Below are positions 18,738-64,000 of a stretch of DNA of 64,000 nt, piece by piece (position 1 is the first letter of the stretch; each line of letters begins with the position of its first letter). The DNA lies in assembly GCF_053078305.1 (NCBI RefSeq), contig NZ_CP166879.1. One strand, 5' to 3'. The position numbers and the translations under genes are program-made. The notes beneath the pieces were generated by a model, which was not told where the DNA came from, did no database searches, and was given only the letters and a program-made list of their open reading frames with translations.

Positions 18738-19907
18738 TTACAGGCCATCAAGACCGCGAATCGGTTTAATAGTTGACCAGGCACGACAAGACGGACAATG
18801 CCAGTAGAGGGTGTATGCGGTAAAACCACATTTCTGGCAGCGATAACGAGGCTTACTACGTACCTTCTCGCCAACCATGTCACGCAGCACCATCAGGCTC
18901 TCTTTGGCACGCCCTTCTTCCGCTTCATTTAAGTGGTAATCCATTAACTTATGGAACACACGCATGGTCGGATGACGCTGAAGCTGGCGCGTAATATAGA
19001 CCTGTGCGGCCTCACTACCGTCGCGCGCTTCGATGATATCAGCAAGCATCAATTCAGCATCGGCACCGGTGTTCTCTTCCACCGCGCGCTGCAGGAATTC
19101 TGCCCATTCGGCAGTTTTACCCAACTGCTGATAGCAGGTTTGCAGCATTTCCAGCGTTTCGCTGACCAGTTCTCTGTCCTGGGATATCACGCGTTGCAAA
19201 CTTTCGACGGCTTTGGCGTATTCTCCTTTCGCCATAAACACGCGTCCCATCATGATGGATACGCGGGCGCTGTTTTTATCTGCCGCCGCCCCTTTTTTTA
19301 GCAAGGTCATGGCACGATCGAGATCGTCGCTGGCCATATGCTGCAGGGCTAACTCACAGTAGAAATGGGCAATTTCGACGCGCTGTTTATCTTTACCCAG
19401 CTTCACCAGGCGTTCGGCAACATCAATTGCTTTCTGCCACTCACTGGTAGCCTGGTAGATTTGTAGCAACTGTTGCAGCGCGCCAATGCGGAAGTCAGTT
19501 TCATCGGTCAGCTGATTGAACATGTCTTCCGCGCGGTCATATAACCCGGCGGCCATGTAATCACGCCCCAGTTGTTGAATCGCCAACAGACGCTGTTCAT
19601 AGGTCAGCGAGGCGCTTTCCATTAGGGTCTGATGGATGCGAATAGCGCGATCAACTTCGCCACGCGAACGGAACAGGTTTCCGAGCGTAAGGTGGGCTTC
19701 AACGGTGCCTGTATCCTCTTTAAGCATATCGAGAAACAGGTCTACCGCTTTATCCTGTTGATTACTAAGCAGGAAGTTAACCCCCGCTACGTAATCACGC
19801 GACAAGCGGTTGGCTTCATCTTGCTTGTTTTGTTGCGCACTTCTGCGGCCCATATACCAGCCATAGGCAGCGGCTACAGGCAAAAGCAGAAACAACAACT
19901 CCAGCAT
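18738..19907 (-). CDS. lapB: LPS assembly protein LapB (YciM), TPR repeats plus C-terminal rubredoxin-like zinc finger
   Basis: 389 aa; N-terminal TM, TPR repeats, C-terminal CQKCGF...CPSC. Confidence 0.9.
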   Translation of the reverse strand: MLELLFLLLPVAAAYGWYMGRRSAQQNKQDEANRLSRDYVAGVNFLLSNQQDKAVDLFLDMLKEDTGTVEAHLTLGNLFRSRGEVDRAIRIHQTLMESASLTYEQRLLAIQQLGRDYMAAGLYDRAEDMFNQLTDETDFRIGALQQLLQIYQATSEWQKAIDVAERLVKLGKDKQRVEIAHFYCELALQHMASDDLDRAMTLLKKGAAADKNSARVSIMMGRVFMAKGEYAKAVESLQRVISQDRELVSETLEMLQTCYQQLGKTAEWAEFLQRAVEENTGADAELMLADIIEARDGSEAAQVYITRQLQRHPTMRVFHKLMDYHLNEAEEGRAKESLMVLRDMVGEKVRSKPRYRCQKCGFTAYTLYWHCPSCRAWSTIKPIRGLDGL

Positions 19908-33822: not shown

Positions 33823-34473
33823 TTACCAGCCACCACCGCCTCCGCCACCCGCGCCGCCGCCAGCACCACCACCGGAATAACTTCGCCCCAACAAACTGGT
33901 ATTGGCCCCCAGACTCAGGTGCATCTGTAATGAGAACAAAACGCCACTACGGGCAATTTCCGGGGCGCTAACAGCCGCTGTGAGTGATGGGGTGATACGT
34001 GCTACCCATTCTCTTCCAAGGTTTGCTGAGACTGCCCAACCTGGCAACGCGTAATCCAGTTTCCGTGTTTCCCCTTTCCGCCGCCGCCCACTGTGTGTTG
34101 CCGCCTCTTTACGCGCAAGATAGTTAACGATAGCTTCACCGTGGGCATAACGTTGCTGCCCAGTTTGGGTAAACTTTGGCAGAAAAATATACCCCATACC
34201 AGTGAGATAACCGGTCAGGAAAACAGCGCTAAAATAACCCGCTGGCATATACCAGTAAAAGAATACATCTCCGACATTGATATAGAGAGAATAAAAGGCC
34301 ACGCCTGAACAAATCAGCGGTAAAAACAAAGTGATGATTACACGATTAACGCAAGGCTTGTCATCATCGCGGGCAAACAAAAGCTCAAGGGAGCAAAATA
34401 AAAAAGGAAGAAGCCAGCAGATCATAATAAACATATCGCCCATGTAACCAGGTAAATCATTTGATACCGACAA
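33823..34473 (-). pseudogene. yciQ: 3' remnant of membrane protein gene yciQ, truncated by prophage insertion
   Basis: 216-aa ORF with TM helices and glycine-rich C-tail in the position of yciQ (upstream of rluB in K-12) but far shorter than a full-length gene; its 5' side runs into prophage-end sequence; ORF start is a TTG, not a real start. Confidence 0.5.
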
Positions 34474-34620
34474 GGGTTTTAGTGAAAGGAGGTGAAATCA
34501 CCTGTAAGATACTGAAATAAAACAGGTGATCGATGATTCTGGAGGTTGTTTAGTTTTGATACTGATTAAATAAAATCCGGTATAAAATTAAGGTATCGGC
34601 AACAAATTTGATACTGCACA
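34458..34620. repeat. Putative prophage left-end (attL) transposase-binding sites
   Basis: TTGATAC(C/T)G-like motifs at ~34461, ~34557 and ~34608 plus related copies (agatactga ~34507; inverted gccgatacc ~34592); about 96 and 51 bp apart, similar to my recollection of Mu L1/L2/L3 spacing. Confidence 0.4.
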
Positions 34621-34747
34621 TACTGCTTATGGACGTTTTTAAAAGTACTTAAAATGTCTTTTATGCTAAAAAGTTTATATCAATATCGATCTGGTCACAA
34701 ATCAAGTTGAAAGTGCTCGCTAAGTGCATAGCCTGGGCTTCATGGGG

Positions 34748-35266
34748 TTACGCTTTGGCTTCTTTATGGGTTAAATTGAAATGATGCTCCTTGGTTTCAT
34801 CTCCCTCGAAAATCTCTCTAACCTTTTGATCTGATAAATTATTAAGGCTCAATGCTGCCAGGCGTCGAATACCTGTTAAAGCGATCAACTCTTGATTCTC
34901 TTGATTGCAGAATTCCAGCAATTTTTCTACCCCTTTCCTTCTCAAGGTGTAAATAACTAATTCTTGCTCTTCTTGGCTCAAAGTGTCGATGAGTTCGAGC
35001 AACTCGCTATTGCCACCGTTCTTTTGAGGGGGCTGGTGTTTTATTTCTGCACTACCTGTAATGATGGAAACAACATGTGCAGGTAAGTCGCTTAAACGGT
35101 AGGCAAATGCTCTCCCTCTGATACCAGGTGTAGTTACCGAACGTTTTTCCCATCCTTCATTTTTTGCTCGTTTATGAAGCCCAGCCAGAGATGAAGGAAG
35201 ACCTCCAACCCCCAACAAGTCACTGGCAAGGATCCATTCTTGGTCAAGGATCATATCAAACTCCAT
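34748..35266 (-). CDS. Mu c-type prophage repressor
   Basis: 172 aa, transcribed leftward ~280 bp from the left end; N-terminal motif LPSSLAGLHKRAK shared with the transposase N-terminus (LPSSLAGLHKKAK). Confidence 0.7.
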   Translation of the reverse strand: MEFDMILDQEWILASDLLGVGGLPSSLAGLHKRAKNEGWEKRSVTTPGIRGRAFAYRLSDLPAHVVSIITGSAEIKHQPPQKNGGNSELLELIDTLSQEEQELVIYTLRRKGVEKLLEFCNQENQELIALTGIRRLAALSLNNLSDQKVREIFEGDETKEHHFNLTHKEAKA

Positions 35267-35483
35267 TTGATATTAACTTTTGTTTATATCTTTTATGCGG
35301 TTTATTTCAAAAATAACTCAATAAAAAACAAATAGATACAGAGCAAATTTAAAAATTTGAAATTAACCAGTTGATATTTACTAAGTTAATATCTAACATA
35401 TCAAACATACACTAGTGAGTAACTCAATAGAGTAGCACACATGAGTAATAAAGTTTGCCATAGAAAGTACACAGGGGGCCATT
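35267..35483. promoter_or_regulatory. Early regulatory region (divergent repressor/early promoters and operators)
   Basis: 217-bp AT-rich intergenic region between divergent repressor and ner, with ttgatat-type direct and inverted repeats. Confidence 0.5.
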
Positions 35484-35729
35484 GTGAGTCTTATTGAAGA
35501 TTGGTCTTCCGCCGATATAAAGGCAGCCTTAGAAAAACGCGATACCAATTTGTCACGTTTATCAAGGGAAAATAATTTGCAGCCTAGGACTTTGGGTAAT
35601 GCTTTGCGAGTTCCCTACCCTAAAGGTGAAAAGATAATTGCTAGGGCTATAGGTGTAGAGCCACAGGTTATTTGGCCTACTAGATATGAACGACGTGCGC
35701 GGAGGAAATATGTGGGTTGCAATGACTGA
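35484..35729 (+). CDS. ner: Ner/Nlp-family DNA-binding protein
   Basis: 81 aa; resembles Mu Ner / E. coli Nlp (...LSRLSRENNLQPRTLGNALRVPYPKGEKIIARAIGVEPQVIWPTRY). Confidence 0.75.
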   Translation: MSLIEDWSSADIKAALEKRDTNLSRLSRENNLQPRTLGNALRVPYPKGEKIIARAIGVEPQVIWPTRYERRARRKYVGCND

Positions 35730-37794
35730 ATTGATTTCATTCAGTGACCTACCTAGTTCTTTGGCAGGTCTGCACAAAAAAGCAAAGAGGGAAGCGTGGA
35801 AAACGCGGCTAAAACCAGGGGTAAAAGGGAAAGTTTTAGAGTGTGAAATAGGAGCTTTGCCTTTAACTGTTCAGCAGGCAGTACGCGAACGCCATGCCCT
35901 GCAACTGATGACGCAAAAAGCCGATGAATCACCGGCTCCGGTGGTGACAAAGGCCAGACGCTCACCTGCCGTGGTTGATGCGGTGGAGGCATATCGCGGA
36001 TCACCCCAACTGATGGTCGAACGCCTCAATGCCCTGACTGAAAATCAGCGCCAGGTGGCTGATGCACGAATCGCGATCGTCAGCGAAGTTCTGAAAGTCG
36101 CGCAACAACCTGGTTTCAGCTGTGCGAAGGCTATCCGGTTTATCGTTGACAACCTGGCACGTTCGCAGTTGGACGAGCGCATTGTGGCAATGGTTGAGAC
36201 GGCGAACGCCAAAAAGGGAAACAGCCGCGCGTTAAGTGAAATCACGCTGAAACGCTGGATTGCGGCCTTTAACAAGGCGCAGAACGCCGCTGAACGCCTG
36301 CTTTTACTGGCACCGGGTAAGCGCCAGGAAATAAAAGCCGAAGATATTAACTGGCTGCCCGAATTTCTGGCGCAGTATCGCCAGTCAAACGGCCGACCAA
36401 TGACCGAGGCTTACGAGGATTTTGTCGCTGAATGGCAGCACCGGCACGCCGATGAGCCTTATATGCTCGATATCATGCCGTCTTATGACACCATTCGCCG
36501 CGCAATGAAGAAACTGCCGGAAGTGGTGAAACAAAAAGGCCGGGTGACCGGCAGTGAATACCGCCAGCTTGAGGGATTCACGCGCCGCGACTGGTCAAAA
36601 ATGCCGGTGAATTATGTCTGGATTGGTGACGGTCACGGCATGAAGCTGAAATGCGCACACCCGGTTCACGGTCGGCCATTTGCACCGGAAGTGACCTTTG
36701 TTATCGACGGTGGCACGCGCTTTGTGGTGGGCTGGAGCCTTGACCTGGCTGAAAATGTTTTCGCCGTAGCCGGTGCCATACAGCACGGCATTCGCCATCA
36801 CGGCAAACCGTTTCTGTATTACTCGGATAACGGCTCCGGGGAAACCGCCGACATCCTGGATAAGGAGGTTGTGGGGATACTGCCGCGACTGGGGATTAAT
36901 CACCCGACCGGGATTGCCGGTAATCCGCAGGGACGAGGCATTATCGAACGGCTTAACCGCACATTACCGATGCGCATAGCCCGTAAATACCGCACCTATT
37001 TCGGGAAAGGTGCAGATCGCGAGACGTTACGCAAAACCAACCGCGATTTACGCTCGGCATTTACTGCCCTGCAACAGGGCAAACGGCTGAACGCCCGGCA
37101 GCAGTCAGCGATGCGTGATTTACCGTCCTGGTCTGAACTGATTGATGCCATTCGTGACGGTGTTGAGTGGTACAACAACCGGCCGCACGATGAATTACCG
37201 GTGAAGCCGAACGGCAAGCATTACAGCCCGGCGGAGTTCAGAAAAAAACGCCTGGCGGAAGAGGACACGGAAATTGAATGGCTGTCCGATGTTGAGCTGC
37301 GGGATATGTTCCGGCCGATGGTGGAACGCCCTGTAAGACGCTGTGAAATACGCTGGCTGAATAATATTTACTACGCGCCCGAGCTGCGTGACGAGCATGG
37401 TCGTAAGGTGCTTATCAGCTATGACATTCATGATGCCGAACGAATTACCGTACGTCGCCTGGATGGCAGCGTGATTTGCGAGGCGGTATGGGACGGTAAT
37501 AAACGCGAAGCCTTCCCGGTTAGCGCGGAATACTACAAACAGCAGCAACGCCTTAAAGGCATGCGTAAACGCGCAGAGGAAAAAATCCGTGATGCCGAGG
37601 ATGAGGTTGTCAACGTGCTGGAGCACAAGCCGCAGGAGCCCTGGCTGGAAAACATATACCGCCCTGTGGGTAATACGGTGACCGTTCAGCAACCGGTCGC
37701 TGACGATGAACCTGATGAAGAATACGAGCGTAATTTCCAGCGGGGATTGCAGTTGCTGGAAGCGAAATTAAAAGAAAATGACCCGCTGGCCTGA
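35710..37794 (+). CDS. Mu-type DDE transposase (MuA-like)
   Basis: ORF 35686..37794; N-terminal repressor-like DNA-binding domain; DDE core (WIGDGHG, YYSDNGSGE); start codon ambiguous. Confidence 0.9.
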   Translation: MWVAMTELISFSDLPSSLAGLHKKAKREAWKTRLKPGVKGKVLECEIGALPLTVQQAVRERHALQLMTQKADESPAPVVTKARRSPAVVDAVEAYRGSPQLMVERLNALTENQRQVADARIAIVSEVLKVAQQPGFSCAKAIRFIVDNLARSQLDERIVAMVETANAKKGNSRALSEITLKRWIAAFNKAQNAAERLLLLAPGKRQEIKAEDINWLPEFLAQYRQSNGRPMTEAYEDFVAEWQHRHADEPYMLDIMPSYDTIRRAMKKLPEVVKQKGRVTGSEYRQLEGFTRRDWSKMPVNYVWIGDGHGMKLKCAHPVHGRPFAPEVTFVIDGGTRFVVGWSLDLAENVFAVAGAIQHGIRHHGKPFLYYSDNGSGETADILDKEVVGILPRLGINHPTGIAGNPQGRGIIERLNRTLPMRIARKYRTYFGKGADRETLRKTNRDLRSAFTALQQGKRLNARQQSAMRDLPSWSELIDAIRDGVEWYNNRPHDELPVKPNGKHYSPAEFRKKRLAEEDTEIEWLSDVELRDMFRPMVERPVRRCEIRWLNNIYYAPELRDEHGRKVLISYDIHDAERITVRRLDGSVICEAVWDGNKREAFPVSAEYYKQQQRLKGMRKRAEEKIRDAEDEVVNVLEHKPQEPWLENIYRPVGNTVTVQQPVADDEPDEEYERNFQRGLQLLEAKLKENDPLA

Positions 37795-41859: not shown

Positions 41860-42374
41860 TGTTCTTTAAAACATCAAACCCTTCCGCGCTGGCCGCGTGG
41901 CAAAAATATCAGCAGGACTGCCAGAAAGTTAAGGATGAGGCAAAACGCCTTGAGGCCGTGCTGAATGTTGCGTGCCGGTCGGTATTTGTATCCGGTATCA
42001 GTGGCTTTTGTTTTAAAGGGCTGCGCTTTATGGATGACAAATATCCTTTTCATCGCGACTTATGGCGAAAACCGACTGCGTCGAATGGCTGGAGCTGCAC
42101 ACCGCGCACATCACGTATTCCCAAAGCCCTGCGCGTTGCCTCTGACGAACTTAACAGTCTGTGGCGTGAATATTCGCCCGTCACGTATGCCAGAACCGAT
42201 GCACTGTTGTTCTGGCTGGGTATTGATTTCTCGGCAATCATGTTTGGCCCTGTGAAGTGGTTCTGCGTTGACGATGTGATTTACCTTGAGTGCGGCGTAA
42301 AACCCGCAAATCAGAAAATGACCGAAATTCTGTCTGATGAGTTTTATGCTGCTGAAAAGCGAGTCAGGGGGTGA
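41859..42374 (+). CDS. Hypothetical protein
   Basis: 171-aa ORF, start overlaps previous stop. Confidence 0.45.
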   Translation: MFFKTSNPSALAAWQKYQQDCQKVKDEAKRLEAVLNVACRSVFVSGISGFCFKGLRFMDDKYPFHRDLWRKPTASNGWSCTPRTSRIPKALRVASDELNSLWREYSPVTYARTDALLFWLGIDFSAIMFGPVKWFCVDDVIYLECGVKPANQKMTEILSDEFYAAEKRVRG

Positions 42375-42377
42375 TGT

Positions 42378-42929
42378 ATGATGATTTTACAACCCATGGG
42401 GCGAAAAGGTCAGGCACCTGCTCATGTCCGTGCGTGGACACCTGAAGAAGATGCGCTGCTGATTGCGCTTTATCCATCCACCCCGGTTAAGGATATTGCT
42501 GTCAGGGTAAAAAGAAGTTTCTGGGGTGTACATAACCGGATTGTTTTATTACGCGGTACTTACCCGGAGTTGCTCAAATGCAAACGTCCAAGATTTAAAC
42601 ATGATGAAGATAAATTTATCCGAAAAAATGCCAGAACGATGACCGGTAAGCAAATAGGAGAATATCTGGGGCGAGACCGGGATTCTGTCCACAATCGGGC
42701 GCGATATATTGGCGTAAGCATGAAAAAATACGGAGAATTGCTGCCCTTCACCCGTATACCTGACGATGATGTTCATCTTATTCGTGAATTACGGGATGCT
42801 GAATCACCACGACGTCTTACCTTCCGGGAAATAGGCGAGAAATTTGAATTATCCGAGAGTACGGTGAATTTTATTTATCACCATCGCCGGACTGCCGAGG
42901 ACGCTGTATTACGGGAGTTAACGCCATGA
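42378..42929 (+). CDS. Hypothetical DNA-binding protein with three tandem ~45-aa Myb/HTH-like repeats
   Basis: 183 aa; repeats begin WTPEEDALLIALY..., KHDEDKFIRKNAR..., IPDDDVHLIRELRD..., each ending in an S-x-x-N-R/H-R-R-like motif; AT-rich codon usage. Confidence 0.5.
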   Translation: MMILQPMGRKGQAPAHVRAWTPEEDALLIALYPSTPVKDIAVRVKRSFWGVHNRIVLLRGTYPELLKCKRPRFKHDEDKFIRKNARTMTGKQIGEYLGRDRDSVHNRARYIGVSMKKYGELLPFTRIPDDDVHLIRELRDAESPRRLTFREIGEKFELSESTVNFIYHHRRTAEDAVLRELTP

Positions 42930-43111
42930 TAAAGAGACTTGTATTTTTCGCAATTTTCGTTCCGGTGTTGGGGGTTGGTTTTATATTTGCGATTACAGGA
43001 AACCTGTCCATGATGCCAGATATTTGGTTCTTTATCAGGATGTCGCTCTTCCTGTTTATTATGAATCTTCTTATCGACATATATATCCGTATTACTGGAA
43101 AACATAAATGA
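42926..43111 (+). CDS. Small hydrophobic membrane protein (2 predicted TM)
   Basis: 61 aa; MIKRLVFFAIFVPVLGVGFIFAITG... and FFIRMSLFLFIMNLLIDIYI; very AT-rich. Confidence 0.45.
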   Translation: MIKRLVFFAIFVPVLGVGFIFAITGNLSMMPDIWFFIRMSLFLFIMNLLIDIYIRITGKHK

Positions 43112-43482
43112 GAAAAATCACGTCCTTGTCAGAGTTACAGGAGATGAATATGAGTATTGAATTAAGATCGTCTTATGAGTATCGCAAATTTCTTATCGCC
43201 GGAGGCATGAAACCGGAAGATGTGGAAAAAATCGTTTCTTTTATGGATAAGGAATGTGACAAGCGGGATGTGTCAGAAATTATTATGGATGACATGATTC
43301 TGGATTCAGTCGTGGCGTTAAGTCCGTTATGGATTGTGCATTCTCTTGCGGAAATTGCCAAAGGCACCGATAAACAGGCAGCTGTTGCTGCCCTTCAGAC
43401 GCTTAATGAAATGCGTATATCTCCACGCCCGACATTAATACAGATGATTTTGTCCAGTATGGAGGATAAAGCAAATGAATAG
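43108..43482 (+). CDS. Hypothetical cytoplasmic protein
   Basis: 124-aa ORF, start overlaps previous stop; possible internal start at MSIELRS. Confidence 0.45.
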   Translation: MRKITSLSELQEMNMSIELRSSYEYRKFLIAGGMKPEDVEKIVSFMDKECDKRDVSEIIMDDMILDSVVALSPLWIVHSLAEIAKGTDKQAAVAALQTLNEMRISPRPTLIQMILSSMEDKANE

Positions 43483-43672
43483 TCTACCCGCTGGATGGGC
43501 GCGCCCTCTGATGGCTAAGAAGCATCATTTTTTTAAAACTGGCGATAATATCAGTATATGTAGGCGGTGGTTATATCTGGCTCATAATCGCGAGCCGGAT
43601 ACATTTGAAAGCCCTGATGACTGTGCCGAATGTCGCAGAAGACTGAATAAGGAGAAAGATAATGGACAGTAG
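43475..43672 (+). CDS. Hypothetical small protein with Cys/His cluster
   Basis: 65 aa; C...H...CAEC spacing suggests a possible small zinc-binding knuckle. Confidence 0.4.
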   Translation: MNSLPAGWARPLMAKKHHFFKTGDNISICRRWLYLAHNREPDTFESPDDCAECRRRLNKEKDNGQ

Positions 43673-43958
43673 TTCGCAGTTGTTCTGGTGTTTATATATC
43701 ACATCGTTTTTCGGTGCATTCGTCATTACACGATGGCTGTGCCGGAAAGTTATCAGTATTTTTCATAAAAAATACCTGATTGGGCTGGCGGCGACTTCTC
43801 TGATTAATGCACTTGCCAGATATCATAAGGGGGAATACTACTCAAGAATAAAAACTGATGATGGTTTTAATATTTTTGTGATTCCTCCGGAGTATCGGGT
43901 TCAGCTCGATCGGGAAAGTAATATCTATCATATCAGCAGGAGTGTTGATACAGCATGA
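43662..43958 (+). CDS. Small membrane protein (N-terminal TM helix)
   Basis: 98 aa; LFWCLYITSFFGAFVITRWL hydrophobic segment. Confidence 0.45.
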   Translation: MDSSSQLFWCLYITSFFGAFVITRWLCRKVISIFHKKYLIGLAATSLINALARYHKGEYYSRIKTDDGFNIFVIPPEYRVQLDRESNIYHISRSVDTA

Positions 43959-44464
43959 GAGGGAAACTGATATCCGCTATTCATGTGGCAAAGCGCGAGC
44001 TTGCCCTGGATGATGAGACCTACACATTCGTACTACTGGCAGCCACCGGCAAAACCAGTTGCCGGGATATGTCACCGGATGAGTTATCCCGCGTGCTGGA
44101 TGTTTTCAAAAAACGCGGTTTTAAAGTGCGTCAGAAACCGGTTAACCGGGCCTTAAAACCGGGTACGGTGACCGCCAAAATTCGCGCCATCTGGAAAGTG
44201 ATGCACTGGCAGGGCTTTATCTCTGATGGTGCGGAAACCGCTCTTAACCGCTGGGTGAAATCGCAGACGGCCGCGCAGAACGGCGGCGAAGGTGTGGCAA
44301 ACTGGCAGTGGCTGGAGCAACACCCCGCCCTGGCCTCAGATGTGCTGGAGCGTCTCAAGCGATGGCACCGCCGCAAAATGCTGGCCGCGATGGGAATGCC
44401 CGAACGCACGCTGATGGGGTATGACGCCGTTTGCAGGCAGTATGAAAAATCACTTCCCCGTTAA
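43955..44464 (+). CDS. gemA: GemA-like protein (Mu gp16 family)
   Basis: 169 aa; last gene of early region before terminator; motifs consistent with GemA family. Confidence 0.6.
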   Translation: MRGKLISAIHVAKRELALDDETYTFVLLAATGKTSCRDMSPDELSRVLDVFKKRGFKVRQKPVNRALKPGTVTAKIRAIWKVMHWQGFISDGAETALNRWVKSQTAAQNGGEGVANWQWLEQHPALASDVLERLKRWHRRKMLAAMGMPERTLMGYDAVCRQYEKSLPR

Positions 44465-44467
44465 CCC

Positions 44468-44500
44468 CAAATCCCGCCACAACGCGGGATTTTTATTTTA
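44468..44500 (+). terminator. Early-operon intrinsic terminator
   Basis: aaatcccgc-cacaa-gcgggattt hairpin followed by ttttatttt directly after gemA stop. Confidence 0.55.
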
Positions 44501-44533
44501 AACTTACCGGGAACGCGAGAACCGGAGGCTGAT

Positions 44534-44959
44534 ATGGCAGAAACTCAGATGAGCATGTTTGGTGGTGACAGTGAGCAACTGCACGCCCTTATCGACCGCC
44601 TTGATGACATCCCTGATGATGTTCTCAAAAAGAACTGGCCGCGTACCCTGTCTGAACTGGTTGAAGTCACCGGCGCAGAACTTCAGCGTCAGGGGATTGA
44701 GCCGGTACTGGCCGGTAAACTGGCACGCAAGGTGGCTGCGGCTCAGGCCGCCTATATGGGCGGACGGGGTTATTACCTGCCGGTCGGGGAATCTCTCTTT
44801 GCCGAGCTGCGAAACAATGAGATATTTTCGCGCTGGGACCGGGGCGAGAAAATTGAATCCCTTCGCCGCCATTACCGGATGTCAGAAACCCAGATTTATA
44901 CCGTCATACGTGAACAGCGCCGTCTGCATCTGGCAAGAACACAACCGCCACTTTTCTGA
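44534..44959 (+). CDS. Mor/C-family transcriptional activator of middle/late genes
   Basis: 141 aa; C-terminal HTH (ETQIYTVIREQRR); sits between early terminator and lysis genes. Confidence 0.65.
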   Translation: MAETQMSMFGGDSEQLHALIDRLDDIPDDVLKKNWPRTLSELVEVTGAELQRQGIEPVLAGKLARKVAAAQAAYMGGRGYYLPVGESLFAELRNNEIFSRWDRGEKIESLRRHYRMSETQIYTVIREQRRLHLARTQPPLF

Positions 44960-45030
44960 TATTCCGCAAAGCCTGCCGCCTTTCCTTCACCGTTACGCTG
45001 ACTCAGAGAACATCATGAGACAGCGTAACA

Positions 45031-45531
45031 ATGCCAAAACTCCCCGCACCACTGCGTAAAAAGCTGATTGCCCTTGTTCTGGCCGGTGCCGGGACGTTCA
45101 CGATTGCCACGCATTACACCGGTTACTGGGAAGGGAAAGAAAACTCCACGTATATCGATCCCACCGGTACACCCACCATCTGTTACGGCCATACCGGCCC
45201 GGATGTGAAACCGGGTATGACCCTGACGGATGAAGAATGCCTGGAACTACTGGAAAAGGACATGAAATGGGCCTTTGCGGCCATTGATCGGCGTGTTCAG
45301 GTGCCGCTTACCCGTGGTCAGACGGTGGCGCTGGCTTCGTGGATCTTCTGGGCCGGTGAAACGAACTTTCGCAACTCCACGCTTCTGCGCCTGATCAATG
45401 CCGGGCAGATGCCCGCGTCCTGTAAGCAGTATATCCGCTGGATTTATTCAAAGGGGGTGAAGCTCCCCGGCCTTGAGGCCCGCCGTTCGGCGGATGAATG
45501 GTTATGTCGCTACGATTTGCCGAAAGTCTGA
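45031..45531 (+). CDS. Phage endolysin (lysozyme family, signal-anchor type)
   Basis: 166 aa; N-terminal hydrophobic segment; lysozyme-like catalytic region. Confidence 0.8.
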   Translation: MPKLPAPLRKKLIALVLAGAGTFTIATHYTGYWEGKENSTYIDPTGTPTICYGHTGPDVKPGMTLTDEECLELLEKDMKWAFAAIDRRVQVPLTRGQTVALASWIFWAGETNFRNSTLLRLINAGQMPASCKQYIRWIYSKGVKLPGLEARRSADEWLCRYDLPKV

Positions 45532-45605
45532 ACCGCTTCTGGCGACCGATCATGATAGCGCTGCTGTGTGCGGTACTGCTGTTACGGGGTGTCCTGTGGC
45601 TGCGG

Positions 45606-45994
45606 TGAATAATGCCTTACCGGCCCTGATTGCCGGGGCGTGCATGGCGGCGCTGGGGATTATCGCTGTACTGGTTGCCGCGATATGGGGAATGCACCAG
45701 AAGACGCAGCGCCTTGAAGACAATAATCAGGTGCTTGTGCGTGAGCGGGATGAGGCGCGTCAGGTGCTGGCAAATCAGCAGCACACCCTGCAACTCATTT
45801 CACAAATCAGTGAGGCGGCCACGAATGAAAAACAACAGAACATTCAGCACAGCGAGGGGCAGCAGAGCGTTGTCCGCCGGTCGCTGGCAGCAGTGCCTGC
45901 GGCCTCTGCCCCTGTTCCTGATGATGTGGCTGATCGGGTGCGCCGGGCCGTCTGTGAAATACGTGCCTGTGAAGCCGGTGCCGATCCCCGCTGA
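45606..45994 (+). CDS. Putative i-spanin (Rz-like)
   Basis: Part of ORF 45473..45994; probable GTG start near 45606; TM helix then coiled coil. Confidence 0.45.
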
Positions 45995-46196
45995 ATGGCT
46001 GGCTGACTGCCTGGTCCCTCCTGCGCCGGAGCCGTTCACGTTTGGGGCATCGGTCACTTACAACCTGCAACTGCTGGCGGTGATCAAGAACTGCAACGTG
46101 GACAAGGCCAGTATTCGTCGTCTGGAGGCGCGGCGACAACATGAATTTACTGATATGGCCGGAACGCCTGCTGTTCCGGCAGGAAAGACGAAGTAA
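45825..46196 (+). CDS. Putative o-spanin lipoprotein (Rz1-like), out of frame and overlapping i-spanin
   Basis: Part of ORF 45630..46196; lipobox LIGC followed by proline-rich mature region; start uncertain. Confidence 0.4.
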   Translation: MKNNRTFSTARGSRALSAGRWQQCLRPLPLFLMMWLIGCAGPSVKYVPVKPVPIPAEWLADCLVPPAPEPFTFGASVTYNLQLLAVIKNCNVDKASIRRLEARRQHEFTDMAGTPAVPAGKTK

Positions 46197-46206
46197 GGAA
46201 AAAGGT

Positions 46207-46434
46207 ATGGATGATTCAGATCGTGCTCAGGCTGTGATGGAGCGGGGATCAGAACGCGCCCTTTGTAACCGGCTGACACGTAAGCGCCGGGCAGTGGATG
46301 CTCCGGGCAGACGTGTCTGCGCAGACTGTGGCGGAGAGATCCCCGCCGCACGTCTTGTTGCTGTGCCGGATGCCATCCGTTGTGTGAACTGCCAGAACAT
46401 CATGGAGGCCCGTCATGTGGGTCAGCATCGTTAA
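46207..46434 (+). CDS. TraR/DksA-family C4 zinc-finger protein
   Basis: Part of ORF 46141..46434; CADCGGEIP...RCVNCQ four-cysteine finger. Confidence 0.6.
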   Translation: MDDSDRAQAVMERGSERALCNRLTRKRRAVDAPGRRVCADCGGEIPAARLVAVPDAIRCVNCQNIMEARHVGQHR

Positions 46435-47012: not shown

Positions 47013-47594
47013 ATGGACAAGCCGACGCGTGGTCGTGTACGCAAGGTGGATTTGCTCCCCGACAGCATCCGTAAGCCGCTGCTGGAAATGCTGCGTGAAA
47101 AACGTCTGACGCAGGTCCAGATCCGCGAGGAAATCAACCGTCTGATCCGTGAGGCGGGCCTGCCGGAAGAGCAGCAGCTTTCACCGGCGGCCATCAGCCG
47201 GGAAGCCTCCCGTAATGAGCTGATTGCCCGTAACCTGCGTGATTTACGCGAGCAGACAAAAGCCATGATGGCCGAACTGGGGGACAAGCCAACCGGTGAA
47301 ACCACAGCGCTGATTCTGGAAATGTCCCGCGCCCTGATGTACCGCCGCCTGCGTGCCGCGACCGAATCTCTGAACAGCGACAGCGACGTGGATATGCGCC
47401 TCATCAAAGACATCCTCCTGTCAGCACAGCGTGCGGAAAGTGCCGCCGAGCGCAGCATTAAGCGTGAAAAAGAAATCCGGGCCGCATTTGCTGAAGAGAT
47501 GGCAAACGCGGTCACCGACGAGCTGCGCGGCGTGGATGGCATGAGCGAGCAGATAGAATTTCGTATCAGGCAGATGCTGCTGGGTAAAGCGTAG
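47013..47594 (+). CDS. Mu gp27-like protein (putative small terminase / packaging DNA-binding subunit)
   Basis: 193 aa; basic N-terminus with HTH-like segment; directly upstream of terminase large subunit. Confidence 0.55.
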   Translation: MDKPTRGRVRKVDLLPDSIRKPLLEMLREKRLTQVQIREEINRLIREAGLPEEQQLSPAAISREASRNELIARNLRDLREQTKAMMAELGDKPTGETTALILEMSRALMYRRLRAATESLNSDSDVDMRLIKDILLSAQRAESAAERSIKREKEIRAAFAEEMANAVTDELRGVDGMSEQIEFRIRQMLLGKA

Positions 47595-47604
47595 GAGGTG
47601 AATC

Positions 47605-47853
47605 ATGGCAACAGATAACCGCTCACTGATGATCTGTGCCCATCAGAAGGCATTCAGTCTTGCAACACAGTTACCTCCTGAAACCATAAAAGTGTGTCGT
47701 GAGTTGACTGAACTCTGCATTGCCGGGGAAATCTCCCTGAAACAACTGCATTCGCTGCTGGCAGAGGCTGTCACTGATGAATTGAGCAGCGTGGACGTGA
47801 TGACTGAAGAGCTTGAGTCCCGAATCAGGGGCATTCTGACAGGTAAAGCATGA
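47605..47853 (+). CDS. Hypothetical protein with C-terminus paralogous to the preceding gene
   Basis: 82 aa; C-terminal AVTDELSSVDVMTEELESRIRGILTGKA matches C-terminus of 47013..47594 (AVTDELRGVDGMSEQIEFRIRQMLLGKA). Confidence 0.45.
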   Translation: MATDNRSLMICAHQKAFSLATQLPPETIKVCRELTELCIAGEISLKQLHSLLAEAVTDELSSVDVMTEELESRIRGILTGKA

Positions 47854-52415: not shown

Positions 52416-52417
52416 GC

Positions 52418-52500
52418 CGGTGACGGGGGTCGAACCCGCATAAACATATGACCCCTGAGGGTTTATGCCGCTTTACCAGTTAAGAGTACACCGGCCTGTA
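52418..52500 (-). other. tRNA-like structured element (acceptor stem and T-arm signature only)
   Basis: Minus strand reads GCCGGTG...GCGGGTTCGACCCCCGT-CACCGGC: a 7-bp acceptor-like stem and a T-arm with TTCGA loop; D and anticodon arms do not fold canonically; coordinates approximate. Confidence 0.25.
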
Positions 52501-52533
52501 TTTATTTTAATCAGATAGTTTTAAGGAGGCAAC

Positions 52534-53007: not shown

Positions 53008-53183
53008 TTGTTTAAGGTATGCAAATGCATTACCTTACCCCCTTCAGGCGCGTGTCGTGATTTTCTAACCTGTATTTAACGGGCTTTAAAATCTGCGTGA
53101 AGCGCCTTTGTATTTTTCCCCTGGAAGCACTTCCTGAAATCCCGCAAAACCCGCCCTGAAAATTCCCGGCTTATGCTGCCGGA

Positions 53184-63968: not shown

Positions 63969-64000
63969 CGAAGTCATCAGCCGCCTTCTGGCCCCCGTGA
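63965..64000 (+). CDS. Start of next baseplate gene (3'-truncated by window edge)
   Basis: ATG at 63965 overlapping previous stop (atgatgaatgacgaagtcatc...); only 12 codons visible. Confidence 0.3.
   Translation: MTKSSAAFWPP

Follow-up and report, generated by a model that had tools for sequence, protein, structure and literature searches.

A single C-type member of the Mor/C activator family between gemA and the endolysin gene of a Mu-like prophage of Escherichia coli

The gemA–lys interval and the prophage that carries it

The stretch of DNA analysed here (the window; 64,000 nucleotides of contig NZ_CP166879.1, assembly GCF_053078305.1) contains a Mu-like prophage of E. coli, of which it covers the left three quarters. 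Between the last gene of its early operon, gemA, and its first lysis gene, the endolysin gene lys, lies one regulatory gene, together with the signals that may govern its expression and its action. The features that carry the argument, all read 5' to 3' on the strand given, are the following.

43955–44464 (+): gemA (gp16 family), last gene of the early operon; Pfam GemA PF06252, E 5.4e-30; 43% identical to Mu GemA
44469–44500 (+): intrinsic terminator found by terminator scan; 9-bp perfect stem (AAATCCCGC/GCGGGATTT), 6-nt loop and U-tract
44499–44504 (+): −10-like hexamer TAAACT (4/6), candidate promoter of the activator gene by positional homology; no −35
44534–44959 (+): activator gene of the Mor/C family, C-type, 141 aa; Pfam Mor PF08765, E 2.8e-32
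44956–44999 (+): predicted activator-dependent lysis promoter; box CTGATATTCCGCAAAGCCTGCC at 44956–44977, −10-like TACGCT at 44994–44999; no −35
45031–45531 (+): endolysin gene (lys), first late/lysis gene; Phage_lysozyme PF00959, E 6.3e-37; 39% identical to Mu gp22
53134–53177 (+): second predicted late promoter, before head protease gene I; box CTGAAATCCCGCAAAACCCGCC at 53134–53155, −10-like TATGCT at 53172–53177

Contiguous rightward reading frames run from ner, A, B, a kil-like gene and gam to gemA and make up an early operon of ~9 kb. The hairpin at its end (AAATCCCGC-cacaac-GCGGGATTT, 44469–44492) starts 4 bases past the gemA stop codon and is followed by TTATTTTAAA (TTATTTT tract); the terminator RNA folds with −13.5 kcal/mol (z = −3.47), and none of 200 shuffled sequences folds as well. 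The activator reading frame begins 33 nt past the U-tract and has a GGAGG ribosome-binding site ahead of it, and the 71-bp gap that separates it from lys contains neither a terminator nor a −35 element. Both the strong terminator after gemA and the single 141-aa Mor/C-like gene ahead of the endolysin gene, which a first-pass annotation of the letters alone had pointed out, are therefore present at this locus.

The left end of the prophage was placed at 34443 by 88 bp that match the end of the Mu-like insert of Stx phage LC727881, and its right part extends beyond the end of the window (base 64000), with ~9–10 kb outside. What is said below of that outer part was judged from near-identical copies, namely the LC727881 insert and L004 (a locus of E. 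coli STEC2017-197, 1–43001, comprising a complete prophage copy plus flanks), and not from this genome itself. The complete copy in L004 spans ~38.7 kb, from the repressor to com/mom, and is 99.6% identical to the window over 42000–46000. Of 5426 complete E. coli genomes, 231 carry a prophage of this family, whose position varies among them, and the same phage family is also inserted in Stx phages, in whose records the target-site duplication is annotated; from the many genomes, the varying positions and the Stx-phage insertions we conclude that the element is active or recently active.

The Mu-like phages within Stx phages LC727881 and LC727895, as well as the Mu-like prophages of STEC/O157 strains, belong to the same family as the window prophage: their activator is 100% identical and the region 98–99.6% identical to the window, whereas the immunity region and the tail region of the LC727881/LC727895-type copies differ. 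The right arm is the most variable part of the prophage (78–89% identity to the LC727881 copy). At the other end, the repressor/immunity region (34531–35871) gives no alignment with the otherwise 97% identical LC727881 Mu-like phage, and the window prophage is probably heteroimmune to that copy, as judged from this comparison. The records of the LC727881 and LC727895 inserts are neither annotated gene by gene nor accompanied by a regulatory study. In the phage collection, a search for distant DNA matches returned only these two Stx-phage records with a Mu-like insert, and no cultured, annotated relative; literature searches for regulatory work on the Sp18 or JNE082796 Mu-like phage found none.

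Subtype and number of the activator genes

The 141-aa protein matches PF08765 with 111.3 bits, well above the curated cutoff of 24.9, over model positions 2–107 of 107, and scores 154 bits against an HMM of its own family (136 sequences). Members of the Mor/C family are small (~100–150 aa) and combine a conserved beta-strand linker that contains glycine with an HTH at the C-terminus (PMC2582627), and the protein has this size and both these parts: its linker, YMGGRGYYLP, corresponds in the alignment to FLGGRQFYIP of C and HLGGGQVYIP of Mor, residues G76, G77, Y81 and P83 are invariant, and the HTH region (S/T-x-x-Q/T-I/V-Y) aligns as well. Within the family it is clearly closer to Mu C than to Mu Mor, in phmmer scores (97.5 versus 40.7 bits), in identity (39–40% versus 31%) and in its PDB matches (the cryo-EM structures 9l0x and 9vw8, 'Late transcription activator C', E 1e-26; 1rr7, Mor, E 2e-9). 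It shares with Mu C not only family, fold class and a similar size (141 aa here versus 140 aa) but also the conserved beta-linker of the form GG-R-x-x-Y-x-P and the C-terminal HTH, and its gene occupies the same place, directly upstream of the endolysin gene, with an activator-type promoter (a −10 and no −35; predicted here) lying between the two. On these alignments and this gene position the protein is the counterpart of Mu C, of the C type rather than the Mor type. The first-pass annotation was right about the family and had left the gene as 'Mor/C-like', missing that it is specifically C-type; within the STEC/O157 prophage family the appropriate label is C-type late activator, not 'Mor'.

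A word-indexed search for relatives of the 141-aa protein yielded nothing beyond close ones in E. coli/Shigella, which were unusable for a family profile. The family HMM was built instead from 136 diverse members among the 2917 clusters (E <= 1e-3) that an exhaustive search of 1.8 billion representatives had brought up, and was run over all six frames with filters off. In Mu, which served as the positive control, this search gave two matches, C with 163.8 bits and Mor with 126.5 bits. It gave one match each (154 bits) in the window, in L004 and in the LC727881 insert, with no second Mor/C match in any of the three and nothing else below E = 3. In agreement, PGAP annotates a single 'Mor transcription activator family protein' CDS in L004, and when the family profile was compared by hhalign with 43 small and medium CDS of L004 the activator reached 100% and all others <=4%, so that no remote homologue emerged there. 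The two Mor/C paralogues in series that mark the three-tier arrangement of Mu are not found in the window or in the two complete copies.

The first-pass annotation had allowed for a second activator outside the interval and proposed that the rest of the prophage be searched for another Mor/C homologue. That search yielded none in the window or in the two complete copies, and one match per prophage copy against two in Mu leads us to reject, for this family of proteins, a second gene elsewhere. Such a gene might in principle reside in the right part of this particular prophage beyond base 64000, given that ~9–10 kb of it lie there and that the right arm is where copies differ most; yet it is absent from both complete copies, and the family genes sit between gemA and lys in Mu and in all surveyed relatives, and we regard its existence as exceedingly improbable.

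A lone activator is not a peculiarity of this prophage. Among IMG/VR loci with a Mor/C relative (flanks up to 10 kb), 47 of 52 carry a single family gene, and the five that carry two are all Mu/D108-like. The single activators are of two kinds, C-type (the window family, L020 and others) and Mor-type (L028–L057, with 156–174 bits to Mor versus 41–79 to C). A scan with a C-type profile collected 80 loci with 55 distinct upstream regions, and in none of these 55 distinct C-type loci did a Mor-type gene occur within 6 kb of the C-type gene. Previous reports point the same way: in the Pasteurellaceae phages 3927AP2, phiMhaMu2 and SuMu a single mor is immediately followed by lys, and Niu et al. 2015 concluded that the middle genes are absent (PMC4553209); in Burkholderia phage KS10 a single Mor gene stands between gp16 and the protease (PMC2628397). 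These phages (of Mannheimia for 3927AP2 and phiMhaMu2, of Haemophilus for SuMu) thus also have one Mor-family gene between gemA and the late genes, in other hosts and as only distant sequence relatives of the window prophage; the activator of Pasteurella phage Pmp9 is 40% identical to the one in the window.

A single activator is accordingly the common state in Mu-like phages, as previously noted, and the pair in Mu is the exception. To treat the single gene as a departure from Mu, as the first-pass annotation did, was correct with regard to Mu itself but not as a sign of anything unusual. What is corrected is the expectation of a Mor/C pair that comes with the Mu paradigm, for in the sampled viral contigs one activator, of either type, is the rule; the finding is correct but ordinary, and of small importance beyond annotation. 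The coupling of the gene to gemA does vary: in KS10 the activator overlaps the gemA homologue, whereas in the window family a terminator separates the two, and the first survey contained 22 distinct gemA-coupled upstream regions with a gap of <=15 nt and no terminator.

Two further arrangements were seen in the course of these surveys. In the Mor-less locus L068 / L212 (IMGVR_UViG_2713897197_000012) gemA is followed by a hairpin, ~500 bp of small ORFs, a hairpin with TATAAT and then the C-type gene, a layout that is a Mu-like middle operon without mor. Several database proteins of 200–280 aa (P0094, P0105, P0132, P0150 and others) contain two Mor/C-family stretches per polypeptide, and they may be either fused tandem activators or merged gene calls.

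Predicted late promoters and DNA specificity

The same box of ~25 bp, with a TAYGCT hexamer 35 nt downstream, stands at the start of two late-gene groups with identical box–hexamer spacing. One copy precedes lys, where the 35 nt are counted from the ATAT of the box, and this box (44956–44977) overlaps the stop codon of the activator gene (44957–44959); the other precedes the protease gene I; and in position they correspond to Mu Plys and to Mu PI, respectively. When L004 was scanned with a 25-nt box the lys and I sites both scored 43/50, against 32 for the next best site, and no comparable box was found in L004 before the tail genes or com/mom, while Mu has four C-dependent late promoters. The box (…CCGCAAA…) and a 30-nt distance to TACKCT are kept before lys in L158, L172 and L175 (84%, 66% and 56% protein identity). 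A shorter marker of the site, the 9-mer AWATYCCGC, had proved too common, with 14 matches in the 43-kb L004, and was replaced by the 25-nt box.

We infer that the shared boxes are the binding sites of the activator. They differ from the Mu C box (TTAT-N6-ATAAyCCC), which is absent from them: the predicted boxes, CTGATATTCCGCAAAGCC and CTGAAATCCCGCAAAACC, contain no TTAT/ATAA dyad, the box here reading CTGAWATYCCGCAAA, and their spacing to the −10 is longer by 8 bp than in the four Mu late promoters. Because of these two features the protein, although C-like in role and descent, probably has a different DNA specificity. Residues of Mu C that contact DNA in the C complex include R30, Q73, R98, Q116 and R120 (bioRxiv 10.1101/2025.05.02.651988), and at these the alignment gives R30N, Q73G, R98E, Q116T and R120E for the 141-aa protein; a box that differs from that of Mu and lies ~8 bp further from the hexamer fits such substitutions. 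Proteins of the Mor/C family act on sigma-70 promoters without a −35 by binding to a dyad whose centre is near −43.5; such activation is predicted for the 141-aa protein from the two shared boxes ahead of −10-like hexamers with no −35.

The site before gene I shows one peculiarity. Only 6 nt separate the end of TATGCT, in the predicted PI promoter, from the ATG of gene I, a start that is backed by the alignment with Mu I and by an in-frame stop at 53157–53159. A −10-like element so placed requires a leaderless mRNA or a different start site, or else the promoter assignment is off.

The regulatory cascade and the control of the activator gene

In Mu the order is gemA, mor, terminator/Pm, gp18–20, C, terminator/Plys, lys (AF083977 annotation), which agrees with the statement of the first-pass annotation that mor ends the early operon and C belongs to the middle operon. 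Like mor, whose product (1rr7) is of the same family, the window gene is the first regulator past gemA; but Mu mor overlaps gemA, lies inside the early transcript and is followed by a terminator, whereas in the window the terminator precedes the gene. Unlike Mu C, on the other hand, the window gene has no mor, Pm or gp18–20 ahead of it and no terminator behind it.

We consider it quite probable that the phage controls its cascade in two tiers, from early genes through the C-type activator to late genes, where Mu has three, with the sole Mor/C activator as the counterpart of Mu C, no Mor, and two predicted late promoters. The simplified two-stage cascade raised in the first-pass annotation is thus the reading that we favour. 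Transcription of the early operon (ner, A, B … gemA) would stop at the intrinsic terminator, and transcription of the activator gene would then run, unhindered by a terminator, into the lysis genes by way of the promoter-like element. Like Mu C, the activator presumably binds as a dimer or tetramer, and it would switch on at least two sigma-70 promoters lacking a −35, one before lys and one before protease gene I. Its own gene would be fed by limited read-through of the terminator, by the weak −10-only promoter TAAACT, or by both. Read-through from the early promoter should be limited, since the terminator is canonical, and any that occurs would enter the lysis genes, there being no terminator past the activator gene. 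A −10-only promoter active constitutively would be harmful in a lysogen, and some control must therefore exist; what replaces Mor as the trigger of the activator gene is the point of some interest here.

A sigma-70 scan of 43400–45200 detected no promoter. Comparison of lineages is more telling, in that all related Mor-less lineages of this layout have a −10-like hexamer directly past the U-tract, in leaders that have otherwise diverged: TATAAT in L212, L215 and L184, TATACT in L183, L188 and L195–L210, and TATATT or TATAGT in L172 and L175. The TAAACT of the window is positionally homologous to the hexamers of L172 and L175, and the TATAAT/TATACT hexamers of L183–L215 lie 2–3 bp nearer the hairpin. 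After unrelated hairpins of the same pattern a 5/6 hexamer follows in only 2 of 33 cases, and the 4/6 level of TAAACT is reached in 7 of 33. The same type of hairpin is found directly upstream of C-type genes in at least eight distinct lineages, and in L171, L173 and L177, where its left arm is lost, GCGGGATTTTT and the hexamer remain. Taken across the related lineages, these comparisons support a real promoter with hairpin DNA over its −35 and spacer. In the window the hairpin DNA would occupy about −42 to −19 of such a promoter, and TAAACT, a weak match placed by positional homology, is a candidate for it.

The survival of the hexamer where the RNA hairpin cannot form suggests that the DNA may be read by some factor, or by a termination-coupled mechanism, that replaces Mor as the early-to-late timer. 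It is tempting to generalize that the C-type gene of Mor-less phages is controlled by an undescribed conserved element in which a terminator hairpin covers the −35 and spacer of a −10-only promoter, but we hold this to be rather unlikely. Two more specific proposals for the hairpin were set aside. That it is a specific operator, being kept at 45% protein identity, is weakened by the occurrence of the same pattern at 58 unrelated viral loci. A geometry like that of Mu Pm, with the dyad centred at −43.5, would place +1 at ~44525, inside the ribosome-binding site, and there is no −10 at 44513–44518.

Three tiers might still be kept if an early protein unrelated to Mor, either a 183-aa D5-like regulator or GemA, activated the promoter of the C-type gene, and we see this as a tangible possibility, albeit short of probable. 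A −10-only promoter under a GC-rich hairpin should need an activator if it is to be silent in lysogens and active after induction; the 183-aa protein (42378–42929, +) has, besides its match to phrog_323 'transcriptional regulator, D5-like' (E 6e-59), weak Pfam matches to HTH families; and the hairpin–hexamer spacing stays at 27–29 bp across clades whose late-box spacing differs (26 versus 34), a constancy that fits a regulator other than the C-type protein. However, several lineages that share this hairpin and hexamer (L172, L175, L212 and others) lack the 183-aa protein, a gap that led us to drop it as a universal substitute for Mor, and apart from ner, A, B and gemA, which are universal, no early gene goes along with the arrangement. 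As to GemA, we know of no demonstrated DNA-binding role. The distribution of the 183-aa protein is itself patchy: it has no Mu homologue and occurs only in some C-type lineages (the window family, L170, L173 and L215).

Alternatively, read-through might prime the synthesis of C-type protein, which would bind the palindromic hairpin DNA (AAATCCCGC) and activate its own promoter. The core of the predicted PI box indeed repeats the left-arm 9-mer of the hairpin letter for letter; in Mu it is the t9.2 terminator hairpin that contains the Mor site of Pm (PMC4390567); and in Mor-less phages with a Mu-like late box (AATCCC) that motif is 27–28 bp from the hexamer at the hairpin versus 25–26 bp at the late promoters. 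Yet the hairpin of the window scores <28/50 when compared with the extended 25-nt late box, L004 contains the degenerate 9-mer 14 times anyway, and the box–hexamer distance in the window clade, 29 bp at the hairpin versus 34 bp at the late promoters, is out by half a helical turn. Since the hairpin fails the box, its spacing is off and is constant across clades, and it is of the generic terminator type that recurs at the 58 unrelated loci, we think positive autoregulation unlikely. A still weaker case can be made for a defective derivative of Mu from which mor and the middle genes were deleted, so that the arrangement would have no regulatory meaning. Compared with Mu, a segment with mor, gp18, gp19 and gp20 is in fact missing between gemA and C; but the same arrangement is found in many diverged lineages (45–88% protein identity), the complete prophage copy has its full complement of genes, repressor to com/mom, and the family occupies varying positions in its 231 genomes and has entered Stx phages with an annotated target-site duplication. 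In addition, an activator only 39–40% identical to Mu C argues against any recent deletion of Mu, and we regard this origin as highly improbable.

Some minor features of the prophage may be recorded alongside the two-tier reading. An extra 82-aa ORF at 47605–47853 (+) ends in a C-terminus (…AVTDELSSVDVMTEELESRIRGILTGKA) that repeats that of the preceding gp27-like gene (47013–47594); the ~250 bp concerned are absent from L004 and from the LC727881 copy, and the ORF has the look of a partial tandem duplication that has diverged. PGAP places a 'tRNA-OTHER' in L004 between the F and G genes (18759–18838, −; about 52416–52533 of the window), and ARAGORN finds no tRNA in the window between 34000 and 64000. 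Finally, a DksA/TraR-like zinc-finger protein (phrog_54, E 1e-19) is encoded at 46141–46434 (+), just after the spanin genes. Homologues of it are present in most of the single-activator Mu-like loci tested, and not in Mu, the two-activator loci or the L020 lineage; the protein may modulate RNA polymerase.
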